From assembly GCA_963695855.1 (NCBI GenBank), contig CAVOHZ010000010.1, positions 1,312,001 through 1,376,000 of the forward strand: 64,000 nt of DNA, given 5' to 3'. Under the pieces are notes generated by a model, which saw only the letters and a program-made list of their open reading frames with translations, had not been told where the DNA came from and did not search any database. This document shows, piece after piece, positions 84-52,936 of the stretch. The DNA comes from an uncultured Nitrososphaerales archaeon (GTDB lineage Archaea > Thermoproteota > Nitrososphaeria > Nitrososphaerales > Nitrososphaeraceae). Both the position numbers and the translations under genes were made by a program. How positions within the stretch are numbered: position 1 is the first letter of the stretch; each line of letters begins with the position of its first letter.

Positions 84-105
84 GCGCCGAGTGGGACTCG
101 ACACC
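84..105 (-). repeat. tRNA-3'-end-like fragment, third type (minus strand TCGAGT-CCCAC-TCGGCGC)
   Basis: Fits T-loop/T-stem/acceptor-strand spacing. Same orientation as most other att-like sites. Single copy only. Confidence 0.35.
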
Positions 106-287
106 AGAACTTTGGTTTTATGTATAGCTACTAGTCTCACAAGGTCTCTTTAAGATTGATGTATAAAATTATCAAAAATTTTTAAAAATACTATTTTTGA
201 TGAAGGAATTATAAAATATCTCTGAATTATTGTATTTCTATAAAAAATATTACAAATCATTTGGGGTAACAGAGCCTTGATACTATA

Positions 288-341
288 CGGGCTCAGAGGG
301 CTTCGAGTACTATATGTAATTGGGATTGGTTTTCTATTATT
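288..341 (+). repeat. att-like dispersed repeat, GGGCTCNGAGGGCTTCGA head, tail type II
   Basis: cgggctcagagggcttcgagtactatatgtaattgggat; homologous to 46998 and to 49843 (minus). Confidence 0.75.
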
Positions 342-673
342 TAATTTTATTTTTTACTATCAAGAATAGTGTAGACACAAAATGTTAACTCGGGGGGTTA
401 TGATTCGAACCCTACCCAAAATCTCAGGGGTTAATATCAAAAGTGTCAATACGTAATGCAGTTATTTAGATCAATATACCTGCACATATTTTCTATTATA
501 AATAAAGATAAACCACTTTATCGTAATTGCATATACAATAAGCCTCGTATCGACATCTCGGCTTGTATATCTGGAATGAAGAAAGTGATTTTTTCTAATA
601 CCTTTAACAAAAAAGTACAGTTTAAATTCAAGAATTAAAGTAAAATCCTAAATTTTAATAATGGATACACATT

Positions 674-1123
674 TTAACTTAATTTCTTGACTTTCCCTCT
701 GATTTTCCCATTTGGTTTATCCACTGTTAAAATATTTACATAGGCTTTTCCATCCTCTATTTTGTTGACTAATTCTTCAGTATCTTTTCCTTCTAACGGA
801 CCTTTAAGATCATGTGAACTTATATCCCCTTCACATAATTTGCCCGTAACTTCATCTTATGGAATTTCCTATTTATACAACTCTGCAATTATTTCTTCTC
901 CTTCACCGTATTTTCCTATATCAATATTGACTTGCTTTATCTTGCTCATTTCTGTAATCTTAACAGAGAAATTCAGATCACTATTATCTTGGGATTGAAA
1001 TGTCGCTAAGGCAGTATCTAAGGTATAAACTAGTGGAACTTGTTCTCTACCAGTAAGTATTGCGAAATAATCAACATATTCAATATCGTCATTATTCCTT
1101 TCATTATTATTAGAAAAATTCAT
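674..1123 (-). pseudogene. CHRD-domain protein with two in-frame stops
   Basis: N-terminus AILTGREQVP. Reading through TAG (869-871) and a TAA three codons later gives DLKGPLEGK...GKAYVNILTVDKPNGKIRGKV, the CHRD C-terminal motif. Confidence 0.75.
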
Positions 1124-1373
1124 GTGTTGATGAGCACACCATTTTAAATAGTTTCAGTACAACTTTATAGTAATTATTAATCTAATTAAATTATAGTCTC
1201 ATTATAATTAATTATCTTTTACAAAGTTTTTATATCATGATTCGTTTCTGGCAAAGACAAATTTTTTCTTAACTATTTGCCTGCTATGACCTCCAACACC
1301 AAAATAGCCTTTCTGTTATTGTAGTAAAAAAAGAAATCCTTTATTCTATTAGTTACTACTATATTGTATTACT

Positions 1374-1763
1374 ATGGCAAAATTTGTTGAAATGGACGAG
1401 AGAGTAAATTTTAAGGATCAGATTCAAGAAAAAGAAATTGAGGGTTCTGTAATTCTAATAAACAAATTCAATGTAGAACCAGATAAGGTTGACCAGTTTT
1501 TAAAGGATTGGGCAGAGGATGCTACTAACTTTAAACAGCAACCAGGATTTATTTTCACACAATTGCACAAAGGGATTGGAAAAAGTACCGTATTCATTAA
1601 TTATGCAGTTTGGGAATCCATAGAGCACTATAAGGAAGCGGTTAACAAAATAATATTTAGTTCCCATACAAAATCATCACTTTTAAAATATGATGATGAT
1701 AGTTTAGTAGTCTCGCCACATTTATTCAAGAAGGTCCATGTTCCAGGAATATGTGTAGAGTAA
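1374..1763 (+). CDS. Antibiotic biosynthesis monooxygenase (ABM) family protein
   Basis: VILINKFNV...FKQQPGFIFTQLH...FINYAVWES. Confidence 0.85.
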   Translation: MAKFVEMDERVNFKDQIQEKEIEGSVILINKFNVEPDKVDQFLKDWAEDATNFKQQPGFIFTQLHKGIGKSTVFINYAVWESIEHYKEAVNKIIFSSHTKSSLLKYDDDSLVVSPHLFKKVHVPGICVE

Positions 1764-1793
1764 TAGGTGAAAATATAAACTAAAGATGTATAG

Positions 1794-1840
1794 GGGCTCG
1801 GAGGTGTGTAAACCTATTTTCACACAATTTTGTAGTTCAA
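1794..1840 (+). repeat. att-like dispersed repeat, GGGCTCGGAGG head, dyad tail type I
   Basis: gggctcggaggtgtgtaaacctattttcacacaattttgtagttcaa; close to the 4129 copy. Confidence 0.8.
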
Positions 1841-2047
1841 TTCTATGGTTATAATGGATATTAGTTGAATGTGATCATTTTCTATCTAAATAAGTTTTTT
1901 TAATTTTAAAATAGAGAGATTATAAATATGAATGAATGTAAAATAAGAACATTATTTTAGTATAGTGATAACTATTAGCTAGTATCCTTGACAATGCTTT
2001 ATACTTTATAGAAAAATGTATGACTAAGTGTTGCTTACTTATTTCCT

Positions 2048-3685
2048 ATGGATGAAAGAGAAGGGCAACCACACGAAGAGGAAAATATTCCAGCATCCGG
2101 TTTGAGTCCTTTTAGTTCGAGTCTGTACAGGACGTTGTGGATTGCTGCTCTCTTTTTATTTATTGGGGCAGCTATGTATGATGTAGGGGCGTCGTGGTTA
2201 ATGACTTCACTTGCTCCAAATCCTTTATTCGTTTCTCTGATCACAACAGCGACTACTCTACCAATTTTTCTCTTTGCATTACCATCTGGGACATTATCTG
2301 ATATTTTTGACCGGCGTAGAATACTCCTTATTTCATGTGCATACATGTTTACAATATCCACAATACTGGGAATGCTCACTCTTGTTGGTGTGACTACCCC
2401 AACGGTATTGTTGATACTTACTTTTGCGCTAGGAGCAGGTATGACTATGATTAGGACTCCAATTATTCCTATCATGACTGGACTAGTATCAAGCTCAGAA
2501 ATACCTTCTGCTCTCACCCTTAGTGCTGTTGCTGGTAACATAGGGCGTATCATTGGCTTTGCAGTTGGTGGTTTTATTGTAGCAGCAATTGCACCTTGGG
2601 CTGTCTTTTTTCTTAATTCAGCTTCATTTATTGGAATGATTATAGTCCTGAGTAGATTACCAAGAAAGTCTCATGTGAACCAACAAAGTTCTCTGCCTCC
2701 TGAGAATATAATTCGAGCTATTCGAGCTCAGATACGTTATGTACGCTATTCTCAAGCAGCACATGTATTAATAGTCCGTGCAGGTTTATTCACATTATGT
2801 AGTAGTGCATTATTATCTCTCTTGCCACTCTTAGCTAAAAATGAATTAGGACTTGATTCGACAGGTTTTGGACTTTTATTAGGATCTTTTGCTATGGGTG
2901 CAATAATTGGTGGAATTGTAATTTTGCCAAAATTGCGATCTAAGGTTTCAGTAGAATCTCTTATTACAGGTTCCATAGGGTTACTTGCAATGGTAATATT
3001 CACAACGGGATATATACGAGATTTTGCTATTCTTTGTATAGTCCTAGGGCTAGGAGGAGTAGCTTACATCACGATATTATCCAGATTTTATACCATTGGA
3101 ATGAAATCTGCGCCAAAGTGGATTGGAGCCAGAGTACTAGCAGTTTATCTGCTTGTACTAAATGGTGGTTTAGCAGTTGGAAGTATAATATGGGGTACAA
3201 TAGCTAACACATTTGGCATCCCAATCACCCTATCAGTAGCTTCGTTAGCCTTAGGTGCAACCATTATCGCTAGTAAGCGTTACAGCACTACTTTGTTGAA
3301 TGACCTCGATTTTACAGCAGCAAGTGACCACTGGTCACTTCCTTCTGAGCTCACAGTTGATCTTTCACAAAATGATAGTCAAGCCCTAATAACAATCGAC
3401 TATAAGATTGATCCTAAATTATCTGACGAGTTCGAACAGAGTGTACGTGAGTTAGGACGTATTCTTAAGAGCGAGGGAATGGCCTATTGGGAATTATTCC
3501 AGGACCCAGCAGATATTGGTCACTATATCGAAATCAGAATTGCAGATACATGGACTGACCATATGCGTCAGCATGAACGCGTTACCAAGAACGTTCAGAT
3601 TATGGAAGATAGAATCCGATTACTTCTCAAAGACGGCCCGCAACCAATAATCTCTCATTATATCGGAAAATCGACTCCTAAATAG
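2048..3685 (+). CDS. MFS transporter (MFS_3/DUF894 type with C-terminal soluble domain)
   Basis: About 12 TM segments; GTLSDIFDRRR motif A; C-terminal WELFQDP...W.DHMRQHER. Confidence 0.9.
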   Translation: MDEREGQPHEEENIPASGLSPFSSSLYRTLWIAALFLFIGAAMYDVGASWLMTSLAPNPLFVSLITTATTLPIFLFALPSGTLSDIFDRRRILLISCAYMFTISTILGMLTLVGVTTPTVLLILTFALGAGMTMIRTPIIPIMTGLVSSSEIPSALTLSAVAGNIGRIIGFAVGGFIVAAIAPWAVFFLNSASFIGMIIVLSRLPRKSHVNQQSSLPPENIIRAIRAQIRYVRYSQAAHVLIVRAGLFTLCSSALLSLLPLLAKNELGLDSTGFGLLLGSFAMGAIIGGIVILPKLRSKVSVESLITGSIGLLAMVIFTTGYIRDFAILCIVLGLGGVAYITILSRFYTIGMKSAPKWIGARVLAVYLLVLNGGLAVGSIIWGTIANTFGIPITLSVASLALGATIIASKRYSTTLLNDLDFTAASDHWSLPSELTVDLSQNDSQALITIDYKIDPKLSDEFEQSVRELGRILKSEGMAYWELFQDPADIGHYIEIRIADTWTDHMRQHERVTKNVQIMEDRIRLLLKDGPQPIISHYIGKSTPK

Positions 3686-3759
3686 TTCACTCGCCTACAT
3701 TGGCTCCACTTTTTTCCAGATATTTGAGTCAAAATTGCCATAATTTCATTATTCCTTTC

Positions 3760-3980
3760 CAATCTAAATTGCGGATCTTAGGAAAGAATTGAATTCTGGT
3801 TAAATATTAAGACTTAGACCATTTGGAAAAACACTACAATATGGCTTAGATAATGTAAAAATTGATCCCAAACATGGCTACGCTATATGGATAGAAGAGG
3901 ATTTATTGTACTCCTCCATTAGTCATGGAAAGAGAAAGTGTTCTTGATAAATATTTTGAGGATATTACAGTTCATCTTAT
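3760..3980 (+). pseudogene. Decayed conserved hypothetical protein
   Basis: Frameshifted pieces read PFGKTLQYGL...YAIWIEED / YCTPPLVMERESVLDKYFEDITV. Boundaries approximate. Confidence 0.4.
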
Positions 3981-4128
3981 TGCCTCAAAAAAAAGGCTAG
4001 ATAGGATTGACAATATTTCTGGACTTGACTAAATAGAATGGAATATTGAATTAAAAAAGAAAGCCAATAATTAAATCGTAAATTATTATTAAATGGAGCT
4101 TTAGATTTACAGATCGTTGCAATTATCC

Positions 4129-4175
4129 GGGCTCGGAGGTGTGTGAACTGATTTTGACACAATTTTGTAGTTCAA
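4129..4175 (+). repeat. att-like dispersed repeat, GGGCTCGGAGG head, dyad tail type I
   Basis: gggctcggaggtgtgtgaactgattttgacacaattttgtagttcaa. Confidence 0.8.
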
Positions 4176-4246
4176 AATAAATCATTTTTTAAAAAGAAAT
4201 AATCTTTTGATCTAACTTATAGTATTCTACTTAACTAATAATACTA

Positions 4247-4681
4247 GTGCCAGAAATGTCTAAAGATGAAATTAGAAATTTTCTTTTGCAAGGAACTTTT
4301 ACAGGAAAACTAGGAACAATTAACAAGAATGGGACACCACATGTAGTTCCAATATGGTTTACCCTAGACGATGAAGATAATATCATATTTAATACTGGTA
4401 GCAAATCCATAAAAGCAAAAAATATTCAACGTGACAATCTAGTTCGTTTATGTGTAGACGATCAAGTTCCACTTTTCTCATTTGTTACTATTGATGGTAT
4501 TGCAGAAATAATTAGTAATAAGCCAATTGAAATTTTTAAGTGGGCTAAAATAATAGCAGCAAGGTATATGGGTGATGATAAAGCAGAAGAGTATGGTAAG
4601 AGAAATAGTTCAGAAGGAGAACTCCTTTTAAAAATAAAACCAACCAAAGTTATTGGTCAAAAAGATATAGCAGGATGGTAA
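4247..4681 (+). CDS. PPOX-class F420-dependent oxidoreductase
   Basis: GKLGTINKNGTPHVVPIWF...KAKNIQRD..V.LCVDD. Confidence 0.9.
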   Translation: MPEMSKDEIRNFLLQGTFTGKLGTINKNGTPHVVPIWFTLDDEDNIIFNTGSKSIKAKNIQRDNLVRLCVDDQVPLFSFVTIDGIAEIISNKPIEIFKWAKIIAARYMGDDKAEEYGKRNSSEGELLLKIKPTKVIGQKDIAGW

Positions 4682-4770
4682 TTAATTCAACTTTTCATAA
4701 AGAATCTATTTTTTTTATCTATTCCAAATTAAATGTTAAAACATATTTCATAAGTGATTGATATTATAGT

Positions 4771-4787
4771 TGTTCTGAGTGCTTCGA
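4771..4787 (+). repeat. Degenerate att-like head only
   Basis: tgttctgagtgcttcga versus ggttctgagggcttcga. Confidence 0.4.
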
Positions 4788-4888
4788 CGATTACATTATT
4801 GAAATTTGTAAACTGGTATTCAGCTATTTGGTAACTTATTTTAAATACTCGTCATAAAATTTCTGATAGAACTATTAAGAAACAAAAG

Positions 4889-4936
4889 GAATTCAGTGGG
4901 ATTTGAACCCTTCTATCAAGTGGGACCAGTTATTTT
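4889..4936 (+). repeat. att-like repeat of second tRNA type (AGTGGGATTTGAACCC...GGGACCAG)
   Basis: Reverse complement gggttcaaatcccact is a canonical T-arm. Homologous to 31686-31727. Confidence 0.7.
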
Positions 4937-5320
4937 TGAATAAATATTATTATCTATCTATTCTTTAATTTTGCATTCTTATTTTGAATTTTTACTACTT
5001 TTGCTTATTGTTTTACGTTAAATACTCCACAACTATTATTTGCACATAAAATAACGATTCTAGATGGTATTGTGTGTGCCCTATAAATATATAGAGATAG
5101 ATATTACATTTCCAAAATCAAGAAAGAATGATTGTAATCCTTCTCGAATAAGAAGTTTTTTTAAGATGTATCATTTTTCTTAGATAACATAAAGTTAGGA
5201 ATCTGTCCGTACTTTAACCACCAAAATTGTAGTAAATTTATATCTTCTTAAGGAAACGATTATCAAACTTTTTCTATTTTAACCAAAAATCTTATCTCTT
5301 ACTTATCACTTTTTTATATA

Positions 5321-8224
5321 ATGTTAAATAACAAGACAGCTAAAAACTGTAATGACATTTTTTTAATTTTTGTTAGTATTAGTCTCATTATACCACTTTT
5401 GATGTTTTTTATTCCTGCATCATATGGTCAAGGCCCTGATGAACCTTTAGAGGAGATACTTAATGAAACTGTTAGTTCCTCAAATGCCACAGATCAACAA
5501 GGACTAGAAGAAGAACAACCACCATCAGAAGAACAACAACAACAACAAGAACAACAAACATGTCTTGAAGGTGAAGTACTCAATCTAGAGACACTGACAT
5601 GTGAGCCAGCTACAACAGTAGAAGGACTAGAAGAAGAACAACCACCATCAGAAGAACAACAACAACAACAAGAACAACAAACATGTCTTGAAGGTGAAGT
5701 ACTCAATCTAGAGACACTGACATGTGAGCCAGCTACAACAGTAGAAGGAGAAGGAGGAGAACAAGAACAAGTACCTGCAGCAAATACTACAGCAGAAACA
5801 ACAACAACAGATACTACAGGTACAGAAACAACTACTGATCAAAACCAAACAACAACAACAACACCAACAGACCTAGCAGAGCTAATAACAACTCAAGAAA
5901 CAACTACTGATCAAAACCAAACAACAACAACAACGCCAACAGACCTAGCAGAGATAATAACAACTCAAGAAACAACTACTGATCAAAACCAAACAACACC
6001 TAAAGCACCAATAACACCTAAAGCACCAATAACACCTAAAGCACCAATAACAGCTACTGATCAAAAACAAACAACAACAATACAGAAAGAGATCACCTGT
6101 AATCCCTCCGAGGAGTTATTGAAGAAAGGCTCTTCTGGAAATGCAGTTGAGACTCTACAAACTATTCTTCAAGGAATGGGTTATTATACAGATGACATAG
6201 ACCAAAAATTTGGACCAAATACTGAAAAAGCAGTTAAACAATTCCAAAAGAAAAATGATTTGAAGCCAATAGATGGTAAAGTTGGAAAAATTACATGGGC
6301 AAAGTTATGTGCATTATATAATAAGAAAAATATAGTCACACAACAACAACAACCAACGGCTACAGACTTAGAACAGCTAACAGTAACAGGCCAAAGCCCA
6401 CCAACAGCAACAGGAACAACTAGTACTGGTGCAGTAGCAACACCAAAAGCAACTAAACCTTTTTATCAATCACAACAGTTCAATTGTGATCCTAAATCTG
6501 CCACTTTGCAAGTTCCTGCAAAAGGGAATAAAGTTATAGAATTGCAGACATATTTGACTGACTTGGGGTATGGTGATTTACTAGACCCAGAAAAAATCGA
6601 TGGAAAATTTGGGCCACATACAAAAAATTCGGTAATGGCGTATCAAAAAGATTTTGGTTTATCTGTTGACGGAAAGGTTGGTCCTCAAACTTGGGGTTCG
6701 CTCTGTGAACAAATTTCATTGTTGCCTACAACATTTCATAAGAGTTCCGCAACAACAACATCAACACCAACCTCTGAAGATGGTCAAGCCAATACTGCTA
6801 CGCCTACTGGTGTAGTTCTGCAGTACTACTGTAGTCCCTCATCTCCCACTTTAAAGATAGAAGCAAAAGGATCAGCAGTTACTAACTTACAGAAGATACT
6901 AATAGATTTGGGATATGATGTTGGGTCTAATGGTGCTGACGGTGACTTTGGAGGAGATACTCAAAAAGCAGTCATAAAATTCCAGCAAGACAAAGGATTA
7001 GAGAAAGTTAACGGGGAAGTGGGACCAGAGACATGGGAGGCATTATGTGCAGCTGCATCTCCAGCATCTTCTACTACACCGGCAGCATCTTCTACTACAC
7101 CGGCAGCATCAGAGGTAGATTGTGATCCCTCAAACGCTGAGATAGTACATCCGAGTAAGGTATACCAAAAGGGAATGTGGTCGTTTACTTATGGAGTCTT
7201 TAAGGGGCAAGGATTAACCATAAAACCTCTTTTTGCTAACCACAACCTGCTTCTTGATAGCCTAAGTGTACCACACTTCAAAATCGATTATGGAGGAGGA
7301 AAATCAAAAATCGTAAGATTCTGCAACGATGAAAATACTTTTCCACCTGAGATTTTTAGCGAAGTCAACCAAGCAAAGAAAAAATATGACAGGTTAGAGT
7401 GGGGTTTTAAAAAGGTCATAAATGAGCCGGATCTGAAAGGAGTGTTGCATATTCTCTATAATATTATTATAAGAACAGATCCAGTGACCAACTGCGAATT
7501 CTCTACTGCCGAATGTTATAGATTTATACCGATGATCACATTCAGTTGGTCCGGATGGGCAGGAGTAGGTCAGGATCCTATTGGTCCACTTCCTGAAAAA
7601 TTTGACAAGTTTACAGTATTCTACAAGTTAGATTATGGCGAAAATTCTGGATTAGTAGAGTTTAGGGACTATAATTTTAACATTGCCAACCTTTATGCAA
7701 GTGGGTTCAGAGATTTCGTCCCAAATGAAATTAATCTACGAGCGGTAACAAATGGTCAAGAGGGAAAGACTGATAATTTTCATAATGCACACTTGGGGCA
7801 GGATGTCATGCTTCCAGGATGTAGATCAACAGCTGGAGATTGTCTCCATATTCATTGGAGGTGGGGAGATATGACTCCTACGATAGATCCTTTGGTCGAC
7901 ACAGTAACTGATATGCCAGTGGATGACAGCAAAGAAGGTAAACCATATCTGGTTCCAGGACAAACTATTGATGTCACAATAGCTAGATATCATCCTCAGG
8001 AGGCGTTTTCCACGGATCCAACCACATTAGTTAACGGTGAGATAGTTGGTTCTACAAAAAGAGAAGATTATCCAGATCCAGCGACGGGGTTGCCTCCTGT
8101 AAGCGTGATTCGTACGCTCGCTTCTTCACAACATCCCGTTGTCTGGTACATGGCATCAGTGTCAGATTCAAACGAGAACGAGTTTTTCAGACATGGAATG
8201 TTTGTCTTAGACAGCACAAAATAA
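5321..8224 (+). CDS. Secreted/surface protein with three PG_binding_1 domains, Thr/Gln-rich repeats and an unknown C-terminal domain
   Basis: N-terminal signal/TM segment. Three copies of L..G..G..V..LQ..L...GY.....DG.FG..T..AV..FQ....L..DG.VG..TW..L. Confidence 0.88.
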   Translation: MLNNKTAKNCNDIFLIFVSISLIIPLLMFFIPASYGQGPDEPLEEILNETVSSSNATDQQGLEEEQPPSEEQQQQQEQQTCLEGEVLNLETLTCEPATTVEGLEEEQPPSEEQQQQQEQQTCLEGEVLNLETLTCEPATTVEGEGGEQEQVPAANTTAETTTTDTTGTETTTDQNQTTTTTPTDLAELITTQETTTDQNQTTTTTPTDLAEIITTQETTTDQNQTTPKAPITPKAPITPKAPITATDQKQTTTIQKEITCNPSEELLKKGSSGNAVETLQTILQGMGYYTDDIDQKFGPNTEKAVKQFQKKNDLKPIDGKVGKITWAKLCALYNKKNIVTQQQQPTATDLEQLTVTGQSPPTATGTTSTGAVATPKATKPFYQSQQFNCDPKSATLQVPAKGNKVIELQTYLTDLGYGDLLDPEKIDGKFGPHTKNSVMAYQKDFGLSVDGKVGPQTWGSLCEQISLLPTTFHKSSATTTSTPTSEDGQANTATPTGVVLQYYCSPSSPTLKIEAKGSAVTNLQKILIDLGYDVGSNGADGDFGGDTQKAVIKFQQDKGLEKVNGEVGPETWEALCAAASPASSTTPAASSTTPAASEVDCDPSNAEIVHPSKVYQKGMWSFTYGVFKGQGLTIKPLFANHNLLLDSLSVPHFKIDYGGGKSKIVRFCNDENTFPPEIFSEVNQAKKKYDRLEWGFKKVINEPDLKGVLHILYNIIIRTDPVTNCEFSTAECYRFIPMITFSWSGWAGVGQDPIGPLPEKFDKFTVFYKLDYGENSGLVEFRDYNFNIANLYASGFRDFVPNEINLRAVTNGQEGKTDNFHNAHLGQDVMLPGCRSTAGDCLHIHWRWGDMTPTIDPLVDTVTDMPVDDSKEGKPYLVPGQTIDVTIARYHPQEAFSTDPTTLVNGEIVGSTKREDYPDPATGLPPVSVIRTLASSQHPVVWYMASVSDSNENEFFRHGMFVLDSTK
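5501..5746 (+). repeat. 123-bp intragenic tandem duplication (41 aa x2)
   Basis: Units start at 5501 and 5624. Further 63-bp and 15-bp Thr/Pro-rich repeats follow at about 5825-6050. Confidence 0.9.
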
Positions 8225-8653
8225 TGAAGCAAACTGTGACTCCTTACATCATCGAAACGATTCTCCATACTAAAGGTTCCTGGGGTAGTCCCTGTCAGCC
8301 CCCTACAGCCGTGCGATAGAAAAGGTAGAGGATACCTTGAACACATTTATAGCCCATCCTCAACTGTTAAGCCAGAAAGAGGTCATTTTCAAGAGCCGTT
8401 ACTTTATATGGGTAACATAAAATAATAAAATGGAGCTCCTTTACATATGAGTTCTTTTTTTTGTAAGTCTAGAATTACCTCATCATTACTATGACTAATA
8501 TTATGTACAGTAAAACTTTGAGCCATTATTTGTTGACAATCGTAATCATGTTGTTACTTGTTTATAAGAACTATGTGTAATAACATGAACAGTACGGAGG
8601 ATATAGGATATAATACCTACCTTTTGAAATTTATTATTATTCTTAAAATAGAT

Positions 8654-9980: not shown

Positions 9981-10009
9981 AACTGATTTTGACACAAATT
10001 TGTAGTTCA
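9981..10009 (+). repeat. Half copy of type I tail (head lost)
   Basis: aactgattttgacacaaatttgtagttca. Confidence 0.7.
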
Positions 10010-10192
10010 CAAAAAAGAAATAGTTTATCAAATTTAAGTCTGGCAACATTGCTGCACTGCATTAACTGCAAAATTTACTAATAAAATTTCTTACAGGTGA
10101 TACGTTAGACATTTCGCCAGGGATATCTTCAGATTTATAATTCAATCTAGTAACCTATTTTGTTTCAAAAAATATTATGGTTTTGATTTAAT

Positions 10193-12729: not shown

Positions 12730-12780
12730 GGGTTCTCAAGGTTTCGATTTCTCATTATGGGAGGGTTTGGTAACATAATA
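12730..12780 (+). repeat. att-like dispersed repeat, tail type II (degenerate)
   Basis: gggttctcaaggtttcgatttctcattatgggagggtttggtaacataata; homologous to 15256 and 16919. Confidence 0.7.
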
Positions 12781-13254
12781 TTTAAGTTTTGGAATAAAGT
12801 TTATAGCTAATTTCGGTTAATTTTGAAATTCATTGCAATAACAATTCAAAGCAGGACGTGTGAGTTGAAGGCTCAGTTCGCTGTCTTACTTTTTGATTCT
12901 TCATAAGATACCAAATTGAATTGAAGGTATTTTTGGTTTCGAATTTTCAAATTTTTATTAGTCTTGCGCCAGTGGTTATTTTCAGAAAAATTAAGATACT
13001 GATAAATGATATCATGCTGTTGATTTTCAAGTACCAAGATAAAATGAGTTTAATGTACATGTTACAAGATATGCTGATATTTCTGAGTGCAGAATTGATA
13101 TTCAAATGACAATTACTATGATAGACAAATAGATAGATGGAGAATCTAACAAATAAGACTTTGTATAATGACCTAATTCACTACTACACTTTTTAGCCCC
13201 TGCTACTGATTACAAAGATATTCAAAGTAAATAAATATCTGCAAATTTTATTTA

Positions 13255-14984: not shown

Positions 14985-15196
14985 TTATGCTATAACTTGT
15001 TCTTTCTTCTGTATATTCATAAGATTGTCATCGACAAATTCTGAAAACTTTACAAGAACCTTTAGAATATCACTTTGGTATCGTTCAGACGTCCTAAGAG
15101 CTCTCAAATATTCATAAAACTCAATTAACAGATCTGAATTTGACTTGCTCTCAAGTTTCCTAACTTTTTCTAAAGTATCTATGAGTTTGTAGACAT
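14985..15196 (-). pseudogene. Tyrosine integrase N-terminal stub (copy 1)
   Basis: DTLEKVRKLESKSNSDLLIEFYEYLRALRTSERYQSDILKVLVKFSEF...KKEQVIA*; paralog of the stub at 16650-16854. Confidence 0.65.
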
Positions 15197-15255
15197 TTTT
15201 GTTAGACCTTCAATATTATATTCCTTCCACCAGTATATGAGCCCAATTGGTTGAG

Positions 15256-15306
15256 GGGTTCGGAGGGCTTCGAATTCTCATTATAACAGGGTTCGGTAAC
15301 ATAATA
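15256..15306 (+). repeat. att-like dispersed repeat, tail type II
   Basis: gggttcggagggcttcgaattctcattataacagggttcggtaacataata. Confidence 0.85.
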
Positions 15307-15373
15307 TATCAAGGTATTATTATCAAAATGTAACTATCACGTATAGTCATTATTCATTAAAAAGAAACTAAAC

Positions 15374-16264: not shown

Positions 16265-16545
16265 AGTGAGAATATTAAAAAAAGATATTTATATATTGCT
16301 TTAAATTGATCATGTAAATTATTATAATACTTTATGCCGATAGTCAAATGTACAAATTTAAGTATTAGTATAATTTACAAAAAACATGATTAATGATTCC
16401 ATAATCCTTCTATTTCTTCGTATTTCTAAATATTGAAGTTCCTCTCGTTCTTTTTGTATTTGTAATTTCATTATTATCTAATAATCCCTTTATTCTGATT
16501 TTTTAATTGTCTTATCATATCCCAAATTGAATTTGGTTTAAATAG

Positions 16546-16854
16546 TCAGTCAGTAGTAAGGTTACAAACTAATCTTGCATTGAGTTCATTTTTGCAGGGA
16601 TGTTCATTTAGCCAATCAGGTACATAAGGTGGTGAAAATGTTGAAGGAATAATCTGTTCTTTCTTCTGTATATTCATGAGGTTGTCATTGATAAATTCTG
16701 AAAACTTTACAAGAACCTTTAGAATGTAACTTTGATATCTTTCAGCGGTTCTAGCGCTTCTCAAATATTCATAAAACTCAATTAACAAATCTGAATTTGA
16801 CTTATTTTCTAGTTTCCTAACTTTTTCTAAGGCATCTTTAAGTTTTGTACGCAT
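16546..16854 (-). pseudogene. Tyrosine integrase N-terminal stub (copy 2) fused to an unrelated tail
   Basis: NSDLLIEFYEYLRS..T.ERYQ...LKVLVKFSEF...KKEQII resembles the N-terminal domain of Nitrososphaeraceae integrases (recognised from memory). No catalytic domain. Confidence 0.65.
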
Positions 16855-16918
16855 TTCTTTATTAGATGACCTCCATCATTATCTTCCACTTACTAGTATA
16901 TGAGCCCAATTGGTTAGC

Positions 16919-16969
16919 GGGTTCGGAGGGCTTCGAATTCTCATTATAACAGAGTTCGGTAACATAATA
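16919..16969 (+). repeat. att-like dispersed repeat, tail type II
   Basis: Differs from the 15256 copy at one position over 51 bp. Confidence 0.85.
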
Positions 16970-17520
16970 GATAAAGTTTATTATTTCATAATTTTATGAA
17001 TAACAATTCAATAGTGAAGTTGATTTGCAGATTTAGTTCAATGTCTATACTTGAGAGTTTTATTCTGGAAACATTTTTGGTATTCCCTCATTTTCAATTG
17101 AAGATTCATTCAATTAATAAAATTTTTTTATATGTTCAGAAAAGATTAATGAAAAAAATATAATGTTAAACTAAATAATATGGGATCATTAAATACAATA
17201 TTCTAATTTTTTATTGCAATGTGAAATTAATCTTTTTACGTCTTCATATGTGGAAATTCACTTGGATGAATATATGTTTTATATGTTCATAACAAAAATG
17301 CTTAGAACGAATAGAACATTGATTTATAGTTGATTCTGACAATTAGGAATTGCACAAACAGGCATTTTATTGAATTTATCATCTTTTCTTTCTTAGATCA
17401 ATTACTGGACTCATATGGGATATATTTAGAAAAAGATAGTTAAATTTGCTCTTTATCACTATTGCGATATCACAATTTTGAAGAAGGATATGGTTTTAAG
17501 ATAATAATTAATTAAGATGA

Positions 17521-31685: not shown

Positions 31686-31727
31686 AGTAGGTTTTAAAAC
31701 CTTCTATAAAGTGGGACAAGCTACTTT
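31686..31727 (+). repeat. att-like repeat of second tRNA type (degenerate)
   Basis: agtaggttttaaaaccttctataaagtgggacaagctacttt aligns ungapped to 4895-4936. Confidence 0.65.
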
Positions 31728-42206: not shown

Positions 42207-42254
42207 GGGCTCGGAGGTGTGTGAATTGTTTTTGACACAATATTTTTGGCCCAT
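42207..42254 (+). repeat. att-like dispersed repeat, GGGCTCGGAGG head, dyad tail type I
   Basis: gggctcggaggtgtgtgaattgtttttgacacaatatttttggcccat. Confidence 0.8.
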
Positions 42255-42329
42255 ATGCTATCTTTGATTTATAATATCATGAGTTGATAAATAATAATAT
42301 TCTAAATAATCGTCCAAAATATTGATACG

Positions 42330-44280: not shown

Positions 44281-44333
44281 TAGCTGTGAATGTCTTGCTT
44301 GTTTTTTATTTTATGATAGTATTCTTAAATTTA

Positions 44334-45238: not shown

Positions 45239-46264
45239 TTAATTATTCTTCCAATCATTTACAAGCAAGTCCATAGCTCCATCATTTATGATTGTATTGT
45301 AATTTGAAGGATTTCGATAACCCATGTAACCACAATGGTTATCTCCCCATGTTGGAGATAAATCAAATTCTAGACAGTCCCAAAGATAATTTGCATCTGC
45401 ATCATACAAATAAGGGGGTATCTCATATCTAACGTTATACTCTGAATAATAATTTTCGGCTGGTGTTCGTATACCAGATTCACTTCCTTTTAAGCCCAAT
45501 GCCGAATCTGGTTCAGCTTCAGGATAAGATCTTTGTAACAGATTGTCTTCTGGATTATATAAATTATAGAATTTTTCCACAACTTTTTCTATAGGTTTAC
45601 CAGAACATGATAATTGAGGTTGATTAGATATACAATCTGATGCGTCAATGGATACTTGCTCATCATCAATGGCAGCACCTAAAAGATGAATCGATGAAAT
45701 TCTAAAATTTAATAGAGGCTCATTAAATAGACTGTTGATTGCTGAAAAAGTAACTCGTGAACCAAGTGAATGAGCGATAATTCTCAAATCAGTATCAGAG
45801 CATTTACCTTTGAAATCTAAAATAAATTGTGCAAGTTTCTTGCCATTTGCATTCGCTATTTTCTTACCTTCTTCCCATCCTCCAGTAAAATCAAAAAATG
45901 AAGGAGGAGCTAAATTAGAATCCCATGTGAAGCTAATAACAGGTATTAAATAGTTCTTATCTCTAAGAACTAAATTTATTCTATCAGATTCTTCTTGAGC
46001 TTGATCTTCATCACGTAAAAATCCATGAACATATATTACGGATTCACCAGGACAATTTCCTATCTGTAATCCTGGAACATTAATAGCGTTATATTCATTT
46101 ATTGTATAATCCGGTTTTAACTCTCCACTATCAAGATCAAAGTGATTACGTGTAGAAACCTTAATAGAAGATTCTTGTGAAATAGATGAATCCAAAGGCA
46201 GATTAATAAATATTGATGCGGCCATTAATATAATACATATTAAAACGATATTATTGTTTATCAT
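45239..46264 (-). CDS. Secreted alpha/beta hydrolase (DUF726/DUF900-like)
   Basis: Signal peptide; YVHGF; AHSLGSR; HLLGAAID; NHCGY. Confidence 0.85.
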   Translation of the reverse strand: MINNNIVLICIILMAASIFINLPLDSSISQESSIKVSTRNHFDLDSGELKPDYTINEYNAINVPGLQIGNCPGESVIYVHGFLRDEDQAQEESDRINLVLRDKNYLIPVISFTWDSNLAPPSFFDFTGGWEEGKKIANANGKKLAQFILDFKGKCSDTDLRIIAHSLGSRVTFSAINSLFNEPLLNFRISSIHLLGAAIDDEQVSIDASDCISNQPQLSCSGKPIEKVVEKFYNLYNPEDNLLQRSYPEAEPDSALGLKGSESGIRTPAENYYSEYNVRYEIPPYLYDADANYLWDCLEFDLSPTWGDNHCGYMGYRNPSNYNTIINDGAMDLLVNDWKNN

Positions 46265-46339: not shown

Positions 46340-46389
46340 ATGGGACCAGTGGTTTGTGAATTGTTTTTGACACAATATTTTTGGCACAT
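46340..46389 (+). repeat. att-like repeat with GGGACCAGTGG head and type I tail
   Basis: atgggaccagtggtttgtgaattgtttttgacacaatatttttggcacat. Confidence 0.8.
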
Positions 46390-46911: not shown

Positions 46912-46997
46912 GCTTGACGGTGATTTTAATTTTGTTATAATCTTTTAGTAACTTTTTTGTATATTTTTTTCAAAGTATATGTTCCTAATTGGTTAAC

Positions 46998-47050
46998 TGG
47001 CTCTAAGGGCTTCGAGTCCAACATGTAGTTGGGATCTGTAAACTATTATT
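46998..47050 (+). repeat. att-like dispersed repeat, tail type II
   Basis: tggctctaagggcttcgagtccaacatgtagttgggatctgtaaactattatt. Confidence 0.75.
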
Positions 47051-47281
47051 TATTAATTTAGTAACTTATTAAAATATATCCAAGCTTTAGCTGAGTATAT
47101 AATATTATGAGAAACATGGGAGAAGGATAAGCGATATATTACAGATAGGACTAATGAATATGATTACACAACTGTTAACACAGCTCTATTTTAGGATTGA
47201 AAGCAACCCAAACAAATATCTAAGAATGCATTTTCTTTTGATTTTAATCATGCTAGTGTGTCAAAAGTTGTAGTTTCAAAC

Positions 47282-47456
47282 CTATTTTAGTCAAATTCAA
47301 ACGGTGTCAAAAAATTATACTATTTTAGTCAAATTCAAACGGTGTCAAAAAATTATACTATTTTAGTCAAATTCAAACGGTGTCAAAAAATTATACTATT
47401 TTAGTCAAATTCAAACGGTGTCAAAAAATTATACTATTTTAGTCAAATTCAAACGG
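47282..47456 (+). repeat. Perfect 38-bp tandem repeat, 4.6 copies
   Basis: ctattttagtcaaattcaaacggtgtcaaaaaattata at 47282, 47320, 47358 and 47396; partial copy at 47434. Confidence 0.95.
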
Positions 47457-47664
47457 AATCGAAGGTCGCACATCCTCGAGCTCCCCAGAGACAACCACAA
47501 AGAACGGTGCCCCGGTGTCCCTGCTCATAGGACACTTCGCCACCATTCATCGCACGTATGTGTCCATGCGCTGCAATGCGAGTAAGCTGTGCTGGCGTTA
47601 ATTTCGGAAATATTTGTTCAATACGAGAGCTGATTATAGGAAGTCCCCTGCGCGTATTTGACAT
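47457..47664 (-). pseudogene. Truncated 5' paralog of the cNMP-domain thioredoxin-reductase-like gene
   Basis: MSNTRRGLPIISSRIEQIFPKLTPAQLTRIAAHGH versus MSNIRKGLPLTSSLIEKIFPKLTPAQIRRIAAHGH at 59307. Confidence 0.85.
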
Positions 47665-49364: not shown

Positions 49365-49842
49365 TGTTTAAGTTCCACTCCATTCTTTCTGTCTTTGATC
49401 ACACGCATATACATCGTGGCAAAAGTAAATAAGGATTCTCATTTCCATTAAAGCATTTTTATTTTCTATAAGATGTGAAAATCACAATGGCTAGCTTTGG
49501 CTTTTGTTCTTATATAGTTTAATAAAAGCAATAAAGTACTTCATAAAGGCCCAAACGCAAATGACCCTAATCCATCATTTAACAAGTAATGTCAGTAGCT
49601 TTTTCAGCACTACACAAGATGTTAAAATCTGATCCAAAAATGATTAACATAATTTACAAAATACTGACTACAAATGATCGTGAGCAATATAAAGATAATA
49701 ATAACAACGATATCGCTATCAAATATCTTAACCAATAATGATAACATATTAGACTTCGAAAAACATTACGAAAACCTTTTTCTATAATTCTATTGGAAAT
49801 TGTTCAGCAATATTGTAATAAGTTACTAAAAATATAAAAACA

Positions 49843-49889
49843 AGTTTACAGATCCCAATTACATGTCATACTCGAAGCCCTCAGAACCC
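49843..49889 (-). repeat. att-like dispersed repeat, tail type II, inverted orientation
   Basis: Minus strand gggttctgagggcttcgagtatgacatgtaattgggatctgtaaact. Confidence 0.8.
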
Positions 49890-50124: not shown

Positions 50125-51153
50125 ATGAATGAAAAAAGCAGTTCTTCATTTCATTTTTCATTTTATCTGGTAACAATATTTCTTACAATTCTTGTTGTAA
50201 CCGTAATAATTTTTAGCTCATTAACATTAAATATAAATCAACCCGCAATAGCAGAACAACAACCATCACCTTTTCTTGAAGACATCTCTTTTGATATTGA
50301 TAATGTTACTTTTTCTCATCATATAGCATCTGTCAATAGAATTCAAATGCACTATGTAATTGGAGGTAAAGGAGATCCTGTTGTACTGTTACATGGATTT
50401 CCGCAATCATGGTATGAATGGAGACACATAATGCCGGCATTAGCCAAAAATTATACTGTTGTAGTGCCTGATCTTAGAGGATTTGGTGATTCTTCAAAAC
50501 CTATAACGGGTTATGATGGTAAGACTACTGCTGAAGATATTTATCAATTGGTATCTCAATTAGGTTTCAATAAACCAATTTTTCTCGTAGCACATGATGT
50601 AGGCGCGCAGACAGCTTATTCATATGCTTTCTCTCACCCTGCTAATGTATCAAAATTAGTAATCATGGATTTCCCATATCCAGGTTTTCTACCTGCCGAA
50701 TTTGGTAAGAATGGACCTTGGTGGTTTGCTTTTCATCAGACACCTAATTTACCCGAATTTCTAGTAGAAGGTAAAGAACGAGAATATATATCATGGTTCT
50801 TCAAAGAGTTAGCCTACAACCCATCTGCAATTACAGAAGAAGATATAGATATATTTGCGCATCAGTTTTCATCTCCTGGTACAGCGCGTTCAGCATTTGA
50901 ATATTTTAGAGCTTTTCCAGTTGATGCAGAACAAAATATAGAATCATCCAAAACCAAGATAACAATACCTGTATTAGCATTAGGTGGTGATATTTATCCA
51001 GGGTTAGGTGGCGACATACCTGGCAACTTTGCAGCAAGCTCGTTACAATCACTAGCTACGAATGTAACTGGAGTCACTGTTCCACTTTCAGGACATTGGA
51101 TTCCTGAGGAGCGTCCAGACTTTGTAATAGACCAACTTTCAAAATTCTTTTGA
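50125..51153 (+). CDS. Membrane-anchored epoxide hydrolase-like alpha/beta hydrolase
   Basis: HGFPQSWYEW; AHDVG; EYFRA; GHWIPEE. Confidence 0.92.
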   Translation: MNEKSSSSFHFSFYLVTIFLTILVVTVIIFSSLTLNINQPAIAEQQPSPFLEDISFDIDNVTFSHHIASVNRIQMHYVIGGKGDPVVLLHGFPQSWYEWRHIMPALAKNYTVVVPDLRGFGDSSKPITGYDGKTTAEDIYQLVSQLGFNKPIFLVAHDVGAQTAYSYAFSHPANVSKLVIMDFPYPGFLPAEFGKNGPWWFAFHQTPNLPEFLVEGKEREYISWFFKELAYNPSAITEEDIDIFAHQFSSPGTARSAFEYFRAFPVDAEQNIESSKTKITIPVLALGGDIYPGLGGDIPGNFAASSLQSLATNVTGVTVPLSGHWIPEERPDFVIDQLSKFF

Positions 51154-51443
51154 AATAGGAATGATAACGAAAGTGAATAAAAGTAGAGTACACATATTTA
51201 CTATGGATTAACCAAGTGTGAAATATTGAAATATGGTGGTTAAATCACATGATTCACGATTCAATCATCTAAATTACAATCTTATTTTTTTATCGTTTAA
51301 TAATTTGATTATATTCTTTGTATATACTATCTGTATCGTTAACAGTTTAATACAATATTAAGAATCTATTATTGAGATTATAAATATTAGATTTTATTAT
51401 ATAATGTAATACATAAATATTAAGAATACTAAAGGAAACTTAA

Positions 51444-51614
51444 ATGGCTATCAACAAGGAGCCAAAGAGTCTAGGTATGCCTTGGGAAAAAGAATACGAT
51501 TACGCCCAGGCGGTCAAAGTTGGAGATACTATTTATCTATCGGGACAGGTAAGTCATGATGATGAGGGCAATATCATGGGTCTATTATATAGATTCACTC
51601 GAAACAAAAAATAA
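51444..51614 (+). pseudogene. RidA-family N-terminal fragment
   Basis: PWEKEYDYAQAVKVGDTIYLSGQV; truncated. Confidence 0.75.
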
Positions 51615-51980
51615 AATCATTAGAAGAGAAATATAAAAAAGAGATACAATCGATAAAAGAAGAGATTGAGAATAAATTCAGCTGATACTATCAAAAATAA
51701 AATTAAAAAAATTTGTCTAACAACAACTTTAATTCTTTGGATAAAGACAATTAATTGAAGATAATATATATTGAAAAAAACTTTATGAGATATAATCCCT
51801 AAATTCGAAAAGTATTTCAAATTCAAGTAAATATTTCTATATAAGAAACAAAATCAAGGTCACATTTGTTATATCTTTGTCTATTGATATTTTTTGCAAT
51901 TAAATTTTATAACTATTAAAATACAATTTGAAGGAGAAATTCAATTCCCGTTGATAGTATTCTTCTAATTGTTACTTTTA

Positions 51981-52481
51981 TTATGTAGCCTTTTTCTTTG
52001 ACATTTCTGCGCAGAAACCTTCGGCTGCTTTTTTAATCTCATCTAGAGAAAGGTCTTTCTTATGAGTTGCTATTGACCATTGATATCCAAATGGATCTTT
52101 TATCGATCCAACACGGTCTCCCCAGAATGCATCGTTGACTGGGTGTACTACAGTGGCACCTGCAGATACAGCCTGATTAAAAGTTGAATCTACATCATTG
52201 ACATATAGATAAAGCCAAACTGGATTTCCTCCAACAGATTGAGGTGAAAAAGATTTCATTTCTTGGGATTCCTCAGATAACATAATAGCAGAATCTCCTA
52301 TTATAATTTCTGCGTGCATGATAGTCTTATTATCAGGTCCATACATGCGATGACGTTCTTCCGCATTGAATGATTTTTTATAAAATTCTATTGCACGTTC
52401 TGCATCTTTTATGATTATAAAAGGTGTAATGGTATGGTAGCCATCTGGTACTGGTTTTACATTAGCTGTCATATTTGTCAT
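51981..52481 (-). CDS. VOC/PhnB-family glyoxalase
   Basis: PDGYHTITP; AIEFYK..F; DAFWGDR.G..KDPFG..W. Confidence 0.92.
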   Translation of the reverse strand: MTNMTANVKPVPDGYHTITPFIIIKDAERAIEFYKKSFNAEERHRMYGPDNKTIMHAEIIIGDSAIMLSEESQEMKSFSPQSVGGNPVWLYLYVNDVDSTFNQAVSAGATVVHPVNDAFWGDRVGSIKDPFGYQWSIATHKKDLSLDEIKKAAEGFCAEMSKKKAT

Positions 52482-52656
52482 AATTATTATTACTTTATTT
52501 AAAAATATCCTAAAGAGACTAAATAGAAAATATTTTAAAAGAATTCTAATAATTTAGGTTTAGTATATTAGACTATACTCTCATTGTAAGGAGAATTTGT
52601 TCTGTTTGGTTTTAAACTACATATTACGAATTAATTTCACATCCATAAAACTTGGG

Positions 52657-52705
52657 ATGGGACCAAAATTCATGTCAAATTTGTTGCACATCCCACTGGC
52701 CCCAT
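52657..52705 (-). repeat. att-like palindromic repeat with GGGGCCAGTGGG head and type I-like tail, inverted orientation
   Basis: Minus strand atggggccagtgggatgtgcaacaaatttgacatgaattttggtcccat. Confidence 0.7.
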
Positions 52706-52777
52706 TATATAAGTGGGTTCATTTATGGTGAGTTTGATCTTATGGATTGAAAATACAATAAGGAGAAAATAGGATAA

Positions 52778-52936
52778 ATGTAACAAACTATCTACAAGAA
52801 TAGGGAAAATTCAAAACATACCTAATATAAAGAATAAAGAGATTGTAAATGAGTTTCTTGAATATATGAGAAGTAATGGTTCCTCTGAACATCTTCAAAA
52901 TAATAAATTAAAAGTTGTTATAGCATTAGTAATTTT
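52778..52936 (+). pseudogene. Tyrosine integrase N-terminal stub (copy 3, divergent)
   Basis: KLSTRIGKIQNIPNIKNKEIVNEFLEYMRSNGSSEHLQNNKLKVVIA; homologous pattern to the stubs at 15196 and 16854. Confidence 0.65.

Follow-up and report, generated by a model that had tools for sequence, protein, structure and literature searches.

tRNA-derived att junctions bounding small gene modules in a Nitrososphaerales archaeon: a probable accretion array of mostly integrase-less mini integrative elements

Introduction

Genomic islands that grow by repeated integration at tRNA genes are known from several lineages. In Prochlorococcus, tycheposon islands are described as tRNA-anchored, with elements lying side by side and parted by partial tRNAs only; they contain scattered fragmented integrases and partial tRNAs, carry niche-adaptive cargo and involve tyrosine recombinases (bioRxiv 10.1101/2020.12.28.424599). 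In streptococci, integration into the 3´ end of a tRNA gene is followed by decay into integrase-less elements (CIMEs) that keep attL and attR and by further integration at att sites, and composite excision patterns occur (PMC5704250). Among the Thaumarchaeota elements surveyed by Krupovic et al. (2019; PMC6563490), 39 of 68 reside in tRNA genes, with hardly any away from the 3´ end; the att sites have a short median length of 17 bp (minimum 8 bp), and re-use of a site can form arrays.

Two further systems shuffle small modules. Integrons, including the archaeal ones, hold small, unrelated and often adaptive modules between recombination sites, and many arrays have no adjacent integrase; as defined in the preprint describing them, they need an IntI with a specific extra domain, attC sites that fold as single strands, an attI and mostly co-oriented ORFs (bioRxiv 10.1101/2022.02.06.479319). 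The dif modules of Acinetobacter are small accessory modules with short sites whose context is shuffled by a recombinase encoded elsewhere (PMC13141974, PMC6449649).

The genomes of soil Nitrososphaerales are large and variable, and little is known of the way in which accessory genes are gained and shuffled in them. Here, we describe a window of 64,000 nucleotides from contig C10 (CAVOHZ010000010.1) of an uncultured Nitrososphaerales archaeon and compare it with these systems.

Results

tRNA-derived sites between small gene modules

An initial annotation of the window had listed 16 intergenic sites resembling tRNA 3´ ends. All 16 are present and lie between ORFs, the modules between them comprise 1–4 unrelated genes each, with ORFs on both strands, and, as had been stated, the window holds no complete tRNA (ARAGORN; Rfam at E<=5). 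Site profiles built from the window copies and then run genome-wide recovered 12 of the 16 at E<=0.01 (289, 1794, 4129, 4771, 12730, 15256, 16919, 42207, 46340 and 46998, and 49843 and 52657 on the minus strand) and 9981 at E 0.04; the sites at 84, 4889 and 31686 were confirmed by direct comparison instead. Allowing at most one mismatch, GGGYTCGGAGG has nine matches in the window against 0.24 expected, a number reached by none of 100 shuffles. Seven of these are listed sites, and the remaining two, at 3047 and 56687 (minus strand), fall within ORFs. For GGGRCCAGTGGG there are two matches against 0.03 expected.

Each of the three head types corresponds, in reverse complement, to the 3´ end of a different tRNA gene in the same genome, as the initial annotation had anticipated. 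Type 1 derives from tRNA-Arg(TCG) (C10:1147352-1147426; Rfam 54 bits), located on the same contig 165 kb upstream of the window, and matches over 18–19 nt. Type 2 derives from an intron-bearing tRNA at C8:91508-91603 and type 3 from an intron-bearing tRNA at about C2:4436-4560. Each site is made up of a tRNA-derived core of 11–19 nt and a conserved arm of 30–50 nt of family A, B or C, and these families are common to elements targeting different tRNAs.

On the plus strand, the type-3 site (84..105) is the reverse complement of the C2 tRNA 3´ end plus part of its downstream flank. Type-1 sites are found at 289..345 (tRNA-Arg(TCG) core of about 18 nt and arm C, with a GAGCC motif in the pre-flank), at 1794..1841 and 4129..4177 (11-nt core and arm A) and at 42207..42255 (11-nt core and a variant of arm A). 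Degenerate type-1 cores occur with arm C at 4771..4830 (profile C, E 1.8e-4) and with arm B at 12730..12790. Only a degenerate head precedes arm A at 9981..10009, where a full head and arm A precede the same module in four relatives. A left-arm pre-flank (TATATGAGCCC... at 15222) is placed before the type-1 core and arm B at 15222..15309 and 16885..16972, which contain sites 15256 and 16919, and before a degenerate type-1 core and arm C at 46964..47052, which contains site 46998. The latter faces an inverted copy in tRNA-sense orientation on the minus strand (49835..49889; type-1 core and arm C; site 49843).

The type-2 site at 4889..4934 (plus strand) is split: its T-arm half, in which 17 nt of the C8 tRNA T-arm are matched, is cut after ...CCCACTG, and an 11-nt spacer separates it from the other half, ACTGGTCCC. 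A degenerate relative at 31686..31725 (plus strand) was recognized by eye and has no profile match. Type-2 cores are joined to the arm A variant of 42207 at 46340..46389 (plus strand) and to arm A2 at 52655..52703 (minus strand; site 52657). Truncated type-2 cores end after ...CCCACTG in 4/4 cases, which points to cutting at a fixed position.

A divergent integrase family and its remnants

An intact integrase of 436 aa (C10:1147485-1148792, outside the window) starts within 60 nt after tRNA-Arg(TCG). It is followed by a 154-aa ORF and a SIR2-like gene in a 4.6-kb element, also outside the window, that has direct att copies at both ends, the second at 1152036. A replication module is absent from this element, the one intact element examined. 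The expectation that full-length integrases matching the stubs would be found elsewhere in the genome was borne out. Apart from stubs, the window has no integrase ORF. N-terminal stubs adjoin sites 15256 (14988..15188, minus strand; residues 12-78, 63% identity to the tRNA-Arg integrase), 16919 (16477..16872, minus strand; pieces matching residues 7-77 and 200-271) and 52657 (52785..52952, plus strand, beside 52655-52703); thus, some of the modules, at least, were once mini elements with an integrase and have since decayed.

In all nine integrase loci read in relatives (six organisms), a tRNA 3´ end or fragment is followed by about 10 nt, GGGYTCATATAC and then the gene. One of these is a tRNA-Arg(TCG) with integrase in another species, and the same layout is seen in the present genome. 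The family numbers 0–20 copies per genome, many of them broken. The protein is very divergent and has a C-terminal CxxC...CxxC ribbon. Its assignment as a putative tyrosine recombinase is borderline, with scores of 28.1 and 26.3 bits against PF00589 (cut-off 27.1), 31–36 bits for paralogues that are 29–30% identical, and invariant R180, K208, R298, H299, W320 and Y330 in an alignment of five sequences. A sequence search found no relative in the PDB, and the structure model is poor (pLDDT 52).

The sites had been proposed to build an integron-like array. In such a platform, the mobile unit would be an integrase-less cassette with one site, captured at a fixed site by a resident integrase. The modules are indeed small, discrete, recurrent and of constant length, the site arrays are dense and co-oriented with an integrase at the tRNA-proximal end, and flanks reassort (see below). 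However, an NCBIfam scan of the integrase found no IntI-type or other integron-integrase match, only a sub-threshold XerA-type match (28 bits, cut-off 220), and attC-like folding is absent: as DNA, eight sites fold with dG -1.3 to -9.2 kcal/mol and z -3.2 to +0.1, and only 2/8 have z below -2. The genes run both ways. The integrase is undetected at E<=1e-20 in 6 of 25 genus genomes, is present in up to 20 copies in others and, being multicopy and decaying, is no fixed platform; the stubs mean that cassettes once had their own integrase, and many indels lie away from sites. We therefore set aside an integron-like array in the strict sense and regard a capture platform as improbable. The broader proposal of cassette accretion, with att-type junctions from tRNA 3´ ends bounding small modules, is supported.

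Arrays of sites within the genome

Genome-wide, the profiles match 62 sites, 48 of which are concentrated in two arrays amounting to 9.5% of the genome. The array containing the window, with a median site spacing of 3.4 kb, begins at tRNA-Arg, directly followed by the integrase. Over most of its length, the window included, the sites are oriented opposite to this anchoring tRNA, which would require an extra, hypothetical inversion. Modules of the CIME type, without integrase but with att on both sides, are found at 1794-4129 and 4129-4771 in the window, and on four metagenome contigs with two sites each (L082, L090, L101 and L107). The glyoxalase module bounded by 52655-52703 recurs in the C8 array at 97% identity, the homology stopping inside the core.

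In its short length (about 50 nt), its relation to tRNA, its intergenic position and its many copies, the repeat looks like a MITE- or SINE-like or regulatory intergenic repeat spread by transposition. We consider this origin highly improbable, because the copies are clustered rather than scattered, are co-oriented within arrays and adjoin integrase genes or stubs at a fixed distance. An Rfam search of the window gave no family matching the site copies, and a transposed repeat should keep its own pair of flanks, which is not what is seen in soil metagenomes.

Reassortment of modules in relatives and soil metagenomes

Congeneric species and soil metagenomes have the same modules of 0.6–5 kb, parted by the same sites but arranged in other orders. 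Relatives have 48 sites in 154 kb on 11 contigs, with a single site orientation per contig and the window modules reordered. To the left of a cyclase module, each of four genomes has a different neighbour, and in two of them the right neighbour differs as well. Metagenome contigs diverge from the window at 4128 and, in 17 contigs, at 4177, that is before and behind the site at 4129..4177. By manual count, 17 of 30 metagenome joint ends fall inside a listed site or at most 5 nt from one, where about 0.8 would be expected; one joint (16919 to 4130) goes back and may reflect the gene order of another strain. In 58 metagenome copies of site A, left and right flanks assort almost independently: of 63 pairs alike in the right flank, only 14 are alike in the left flank too.

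It had been anticipated that variable gene boundaries would coincide with the sites. This held in part: breakpoints are enriched at sites, with 14 of 70 HSP ends no more than 30 nt from a site edge where 4.8 would be expected, but the other 56 lie farther away. On the syntenic contig of one relative (G035:C11), 11 indels are seen, 9 of them at no recognizable site. One is a clean cassette indel between two A sites that leaves a hybrid site in the relative; its crossover lies inside arm A, not in the tRNA-derived core, and the left copy is headless, which fits homologous recombination between repeats no less than integrase action. For one cassette found in two contexts, homology ends 120–220 nt before the next site. 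Module identity between species (82–97%) is within the range of syntenic blocks (88–96.5%) and gives no sign of recent transfer.

These observations bear on a further reading, in which the sites are inert scars: each module brought its own integrase, which then decayed; no integrase acts on the array today, and new combinations arise only from independent integrations and homologous or illegitimate recombination. The stubs at three window sites, the many broken integrase copies, the crossover of the clean indel in a 23-nt arm repeat of a headless copy, the absence of a site at either break of 9 of the 10 further indels relative to G035:C11, and cassette identities like those of the syntenic background all agree with it. 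It is harder to reconcile with the fixed nucleotide at which truncated type-2 cores end, and with free assortment of flanks across a repeat of only 48 nt. The same is true of the cyclase module, which has no integrase and whose neighbours differ on either side in two genomes, and of the left-arm motif, which persists at 24 of 67 junctions whereas only 5 of 71 contigs contain integrase remnants. Intact integrases of the family are, moreover, still present in the genome. On balance, we find inert scars unlikely, though less so than a capture platform.

Discussion

The sites are probably att junctions of genus-specific, very small integrative elements that target tRNA genes and have been reshuffled at att copies. 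Each such element would consist of an integrase and 1–4 cargo genes. Read in tRNA sense, a site is the right arm (A, B or C) of one element followed by the core, i.e. the last 11–19 nt of the host tRNA, and, in about a third of copies, by the left arm of the next element (about 10 nt and the GGGYTCATATAC motif), with the integrase start just after. Elements would have piled up into arrays by integrating again and again, either at the tRNA gene or at att copies already in place. Most elements appear to have lost their integrase, which survives as a stub or not at all, and this loss would have left cargo modules of 0.6–5 kb bounded by att sites. Recombination between att copies may then delete, invert and re-join modules, giving differing combinations across species and soil populations; a likely catalyst would be an intact family integrase still in the genome, e.g. 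the one beside tRNA-Arg. The tRNA-derived cores, their arms, the arrays, the integrase with its stubs and the reassortment at sites are direct observations, from which we infer that the integrase, rather than homologous recombination, performs this reshuffling and that it is ongoing. A stronger version, which we hold only tentatively and think somewhat doubtful, is that the integrase-less modules are working cassettes, for which a site of about 48 nt (core and arm) would suffice for excision and re-insertion by integrases acting in trans.

We thus read the region as an array built by accretion of mini integrative elements, most of them without integrase, that resembles tycheposon islands and CIME accretion. 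The tRNA-anchored island, partial tRNAs and integrase remnants described for tycheposons are all found here. Here, however, the host is an archaeon, the integrase is divergent and has the C-terminal ribbon, the intact element comprises only the integrase, the 154-aa ORF and the SIR2-like gene, without a replication module, the sites are far denser, as in the C10 array, and arms are common across tRNA targets. The streptococcal CIMEs are matched by the integrase-less modules with att sites on both sides, but the tandems described there comprise two or three conjugative elements of 10–100 kb (PMC5704250), as opposed to dozens of small modules here, and the window showed no transfer genes. The Thaumarchaeota elements come from the same host phylum; those described are single or double insertions (PMC6563490), whereas arrays of tens of sites and reassorting integrase-less modules are found here. 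With integrons the region shares small unrelated modules parted by recombination sites, but not the defining features; in the main text of the integron preprint, the terms Thaumarchaeota, Nitrososphaer- and tRNA do not occur (bioRxiv 10.1101/2022.02.06.479319). The Acinetobacter modules use XerC/XerD pdif sites on plasmids (PMC13141974, PMC6449649), as opposed to tRNA-derived att sites on a chromosome.

In conclusion, the region offers a concrete route for the gain and shuffling of accessory genes in these archaea, in which tRNA-targeting mini elements pile into arrays of tens of sites. Among the cargo are redox and detoxification enzymes, transporters, cyclases and a SIR2-like defence gene. 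The cargo is found re-joined in numerous ways throughout the genus and in soil samples of several studies. If the integrase does the reshuffling, this would be a tractable case of modular gene exchange in archaea, with sites that are short and defined and a small integrase amenable to in vitro tests. Otherwise, the region still illustrates, with unusual density and resolution, how an island grows by accretion, and can be compared with the tycheposon islands of marine cyanobacteria. Should the modules be working cassettes, hundreds of accessory genes would form an exchangeable pool common to the genus, and archaea would have a functional counterpart of integrons that relies on tRNA att sites and on an unrelated tyrosine recombinase with a zinc ribbon.

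tRNA origin and distribution of the sites

The window is C10:1312001–1376000 of the host genome (3.55 Mb, 11 contigs, ~31% G+C), and its closest public-record relatives are MAGs of uncultured Nitrososphaerales or Nitrososphaeraceae. The type-1 head motif occurs nine times in the window (0.24 expected) and the type-2 motif twice (0.03 expected); seven of the nine type-1 matches are sites listed in the initial annotation and two lie within ORFs. The sites extend beyond their heads, and repeat finding separates three families by the 30–50 nt that follow, referred to as arms A, B and C. The listed sites are real: of the 16, profiles of these families recovered 12 at E≤0.01 and the one at 9981 at E 0.04, and those at 84, 4889 and 31686 were recognized by eye and by comparison as other kinds.

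The initial annotation had derived the heads from tRNA 3´ ends, and all three types match tRNAs of the host; the first outcome it had named as refuting, heads unlike any host tRNA, is not borne out. Reverse-complemented, the type-1 head equals the final 18–19 nt of tRNA-Arg(TCG) at C10:1147352–1147426, a gene 165 kb upstream of the window with an Rfam score of 54 bits. The type-2 head matches the end of an intron-bearing tRNA at C8:91508–91603, and the type-3 head, at site 84, matches that of a second tRNA with an intron, on contig C2, called by ARAGORN with relaxed settings only. Two of the three loci with a type-3 core are without a full tRNA; the third is this C2 locus, which ARAGORN alone called. 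ARAGORN finds 36 tRNAs genome-wide; within the window, it agrees with Rfam (E≤5) that there is no complete tRNA, as had been claimed, and the Rfam scan at this threshold gave no relevant match.

Genome-wide, the profiles give 62 distinct matches, two of which are real tRNA-Arg genes. The matches fall into C10:1147–1398 kb (34, at a median spacing of 3.4 kb), C8:90–175 kb (14, downstream of the type-2 tRNA) and other places (14). The 250-kb region on C10 is a candidate single island. Its sites lie in tRNA sense near the tRNA, in antisense at 1217–1359 kb, which includes most of the window, and again in tRNA sense beyond window position 49.8 kb. This switch would be accounted for if one large inversion had taken place between two arm C sites, those at C10:1169896 and at window position 46998.

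Site anatomy and the integrase family

Read on the window plus strand, which is antisense to the tRNA, a site consists of a pre-flank with TATATGA[AG]CCC at many sites, ~10 nt, the head and the arm. In sites with arm A, the tRNA sequence that remains is only 11 nt for the Arg core and 13 nt for the type-2 core, and those with arm B or arm C keep 18–19 nt; the arm A family is joined to two tRNA cores, at 42207 and 46340. Truncated type-2 cores with T-loop context end at the same nucleotide, after CCCACTG, in all four cases in the genome. This pre-flank is also found at the real tRNA-Arg gene, where the integrase gene begins ~60 nt after the tRNA. In relatives, each of nine integrase loci read (six organisms, four different tRNA cores) has a tRNA 3´ end or fragment, ~10 nt and GGGYTCATATAC upstream of the integrase gene. 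One of these loci has a full tRNA-Arg(TCG) and an integrase, 74% identical; another runs without a break from arm A through the 11-nt core and the left arm to the integrase, an arrangement to be expected of an internal array position or an attP. From the layout of the integrase loci, the pre-flank is an element's left arm, and the right arms are of families A, B and C.

Some copies of site A (head plus arm A) are variants in which NCAAAC replaces the first six head bases or separates these from GGAGG. This variant, or one with a GAGTGC head, is seen in the metagenome contigs L071, L086, L103, L108, L116, L119, L120 and L133, and such head variants also adjoin the window module 9981–11830 in the relatives' genomes G003 and G004. 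A 26-nt arm A word had no exact match among viral contigs.

PF00589 matches 13 places in the genome, one of them directly after tRNA-Arg. Searches with the integrase family (tblastn) found N-terminal stubs adjoining the window sites 15256, 16919 and 52657, and more elsewhere in the region. The first element after tRNA-Arg is intact: 4.6 kb long, it holds the integrase (C10:1147485–1148792; L020:7485–8792), a 154-aa ORF and, as cargo, a SIR2-like gene (C10:1150377–1151744; L020:10377–11744), and it ends with an att copy that has arm B. Without its integrase, this element would be a module of 1–3 genes, of the size found in the window. The SIR2-like protein matches Pfam SIR2_2 and stays far under the cut-off of the NCBIfam anti-phage SIR2 model. 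Positions C10:1151998–1156400, on the main contig, are 100% identical over 4.4 kb to C7:5650–10052, on a contig of 10 kb, and their divergence sets in precisely where arm B of the att copy at 1152036 ends. Either the segment was duplicated very recently, or the sampled population contains a second arrangement.

The integrase family is highly diverged and has borderline Pfam and NCBIfam scores; a 5-sequence alignment shows no variation at R180, K208, R298, H299, W320 and Y330. An AlphaFold2 model from this alignment has a mean pLDDT of 52, with values below 50 in the catalytic part. A C-terminal CxxC-x10-CxxC (residues 360–385) is conserved and followed by a long predicted helix; it weakly resembles ribosomal zinc ribbons, and sequence searches of the PDB, with the single protein and with a profile, gave only a zinc-ribbon likeness to eL40/S31 (E 0.4–1). 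The family is matched at E≤1e-20 in 19 of 25 genomes of the genus, with 0–20 copies in each, many of them broken, and is not a fixed platform.

Reassortment of modules among relatives

Modules are reassorted at the sites. Window positions 1–20000 are matched by all 18 same-genus genomes searched, only piecewise, and the pieces often begin or end at sites, e.g., at 9981 (four genomes), 4129–4934, 15256–16318 and 657–1838. Eleven contigs of relatives (154 kb) contain 48 sites, in a single orientation per contig, and carry window modules in other orders. The cyclase module (9981–11880) has a full site A in front of it in four genomes, with different sequence ahead of that site in each of the four; in two of these another site A follows immediately on the module, and the sequence beyond it again differs. 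The glyoxalase module of the window has a second copy in the C8 array at 97% identity, and the homology stops inside the core, after CCCACTG. Arm A is present in five of five sampled genomes of the genus and essentially absent outside it: 18 genomes from elsewhere in the family gave a single 3-mismatch match, and a further 127 from the order gave one.

It had been anticipated that variable gene boundaries would coincide with the sites. Several results speak against a simple cassette picture, among them the lack of attC-like folding (see below). At 19 loci on relatives' contigs, only 14 of 70 HSP ends lie ≤30 nt from a site edge, with 4.8 expected, and 9 of the 70 lie ≤10 nt away, with 1.9 expected. 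Most ends are at gene borders; in one cassette the homology stops 120–220 nt short of the next site. Cassette identities between species are not above the syntenic background. A relative's contig (G035:C11) syntenic with C10:1192–1274 kb is without a 3.25-kb cassette that lies between two A sites in the present genome, and has a hybrid site at this place, with the crossover within the arm A core. Ten further indels separate the two sequences, nine of them without a site at either break.

Homologous recombination between the 50-nt repeats is a rival explanation of the reassortment, and the one clean indel, that of the 3.25-kb cassette, fits it as well as it fits an integrase. The fixed truncation point, the retention of the arms and the existence of intact family members point to an integrase as the agent that would perform the reassortment. 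We read the sites as att junctions of mini integrative elements, and the window as the distal portion of an array that grew by accretion and whose elements are now mostly without an integrase of their own.

Soil metagenomes

Contigs from four runs of four studies were compared with window positions 1–20000, parts with little or no cover not being counted as evidence. They join site to site (289 to 4130, 4175 to 4893, 4175 to 15275 and 16919 to 4130), and loose contig ends accumulate at 4128, 4177, 4894, 4932 and 15308/9. In total, 17 of 30 joint ends are in, or ≤5 nt from, a listed site (~0.8 expected). Since the sites are repeats, these joints derive from related organisms and not from this strain. 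The joint from 16919 back to 4130 was not counted as a circle, being indistinguishable from the gene order of another strain, and L090, a contig with a site near each end, is not circular, as neither the sites nor their flanks agree between its two ends. In three soil runs, contigs also break off on either side of a 50-nt stretch at 19465–19517; it resembles no site family and is possibly where another repeat ends.

An exact site A is found in 71 public metagenome contigs. Its 58 copies with both flanks fall into 35 left-flank and 32 right-flank clusters; pairs with a common right flank also share the left in 14 of 63 cases, and pairs with a common left flank share the right in 14 of 47. Of 67 junctions, 24 still have the left-arm motif, as compared to 6 of 201 control windows, and an integrase remnant is present in only five of the 71 contigs, always to the left and 63–188 nt from the head. 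Cassettes of near-constant length recur (~600, ~880 and 1650–1740 nt), and all sites have the same orientation in the metagenome contigs listed.

Cargo and other features of the window

The modules, with genes on both strands, encode enzymes (ABM monooxygenase, PNPOx-like proteins, Zn-dependent alcohol dehydrogenase, P450, glyoxalases, FMN reductase, SDR, alpha/beta hydrolases and redoxins), transporters (MFS, EamA and MgtC), adenylate cyclase, a helicase and IS fragments. A 967-aa ORF at 5321–8224 has three peptidoglycan-binding domains and internal tandem repeats of 72 and 123 nt, an unusual find in an archaeon. At 47244–47471, a 38-nt unit is repeated five times head to tail, with three identical copies, and these look like iterons or a protein-binding array; they sit within a 2.8-kb segment between the inverted att copies 46998 and 49843. 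A repeat of ~920 nt at 44304–45243, with related ends at 28728–28920 and 22097–22213, is probably IS-like and non-autonomous; it has at least 10 copies in this genome (84–88% identity) and occurs in many of the searched genomes of the genus.

Comparison with known systems

The initial annotation compared the array with an integron; the system fails the defining tests of integrons (bioRxiv 10.1101/2022.02.06.479319), both in a scan with integrase models and in site folding, the sites having no attC-like fold. The closest counterparts are the tycheposon-shaped islands of Prochlorococcus (bioRxiv 10.1101/2020.12.28.424599) and CIME-type accretion in streptococci (PMC5704250). In Thaumarchaeota, tandem integration at tRNAs, with short att sites, has been described before (Krupovic 2019, PMC6563490). 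The excerpts returned by our literature search contain no description of dense cassette arrays with tRNA-att sites, either in Nitrososphaerales or in ammonia-oxidising archaea. New here are the density of the sites, the very small size of the elements, the arm families common to elements with different tRNA cores, and the recombination of integrase-less modules, which is genus-wide and soil-wide.
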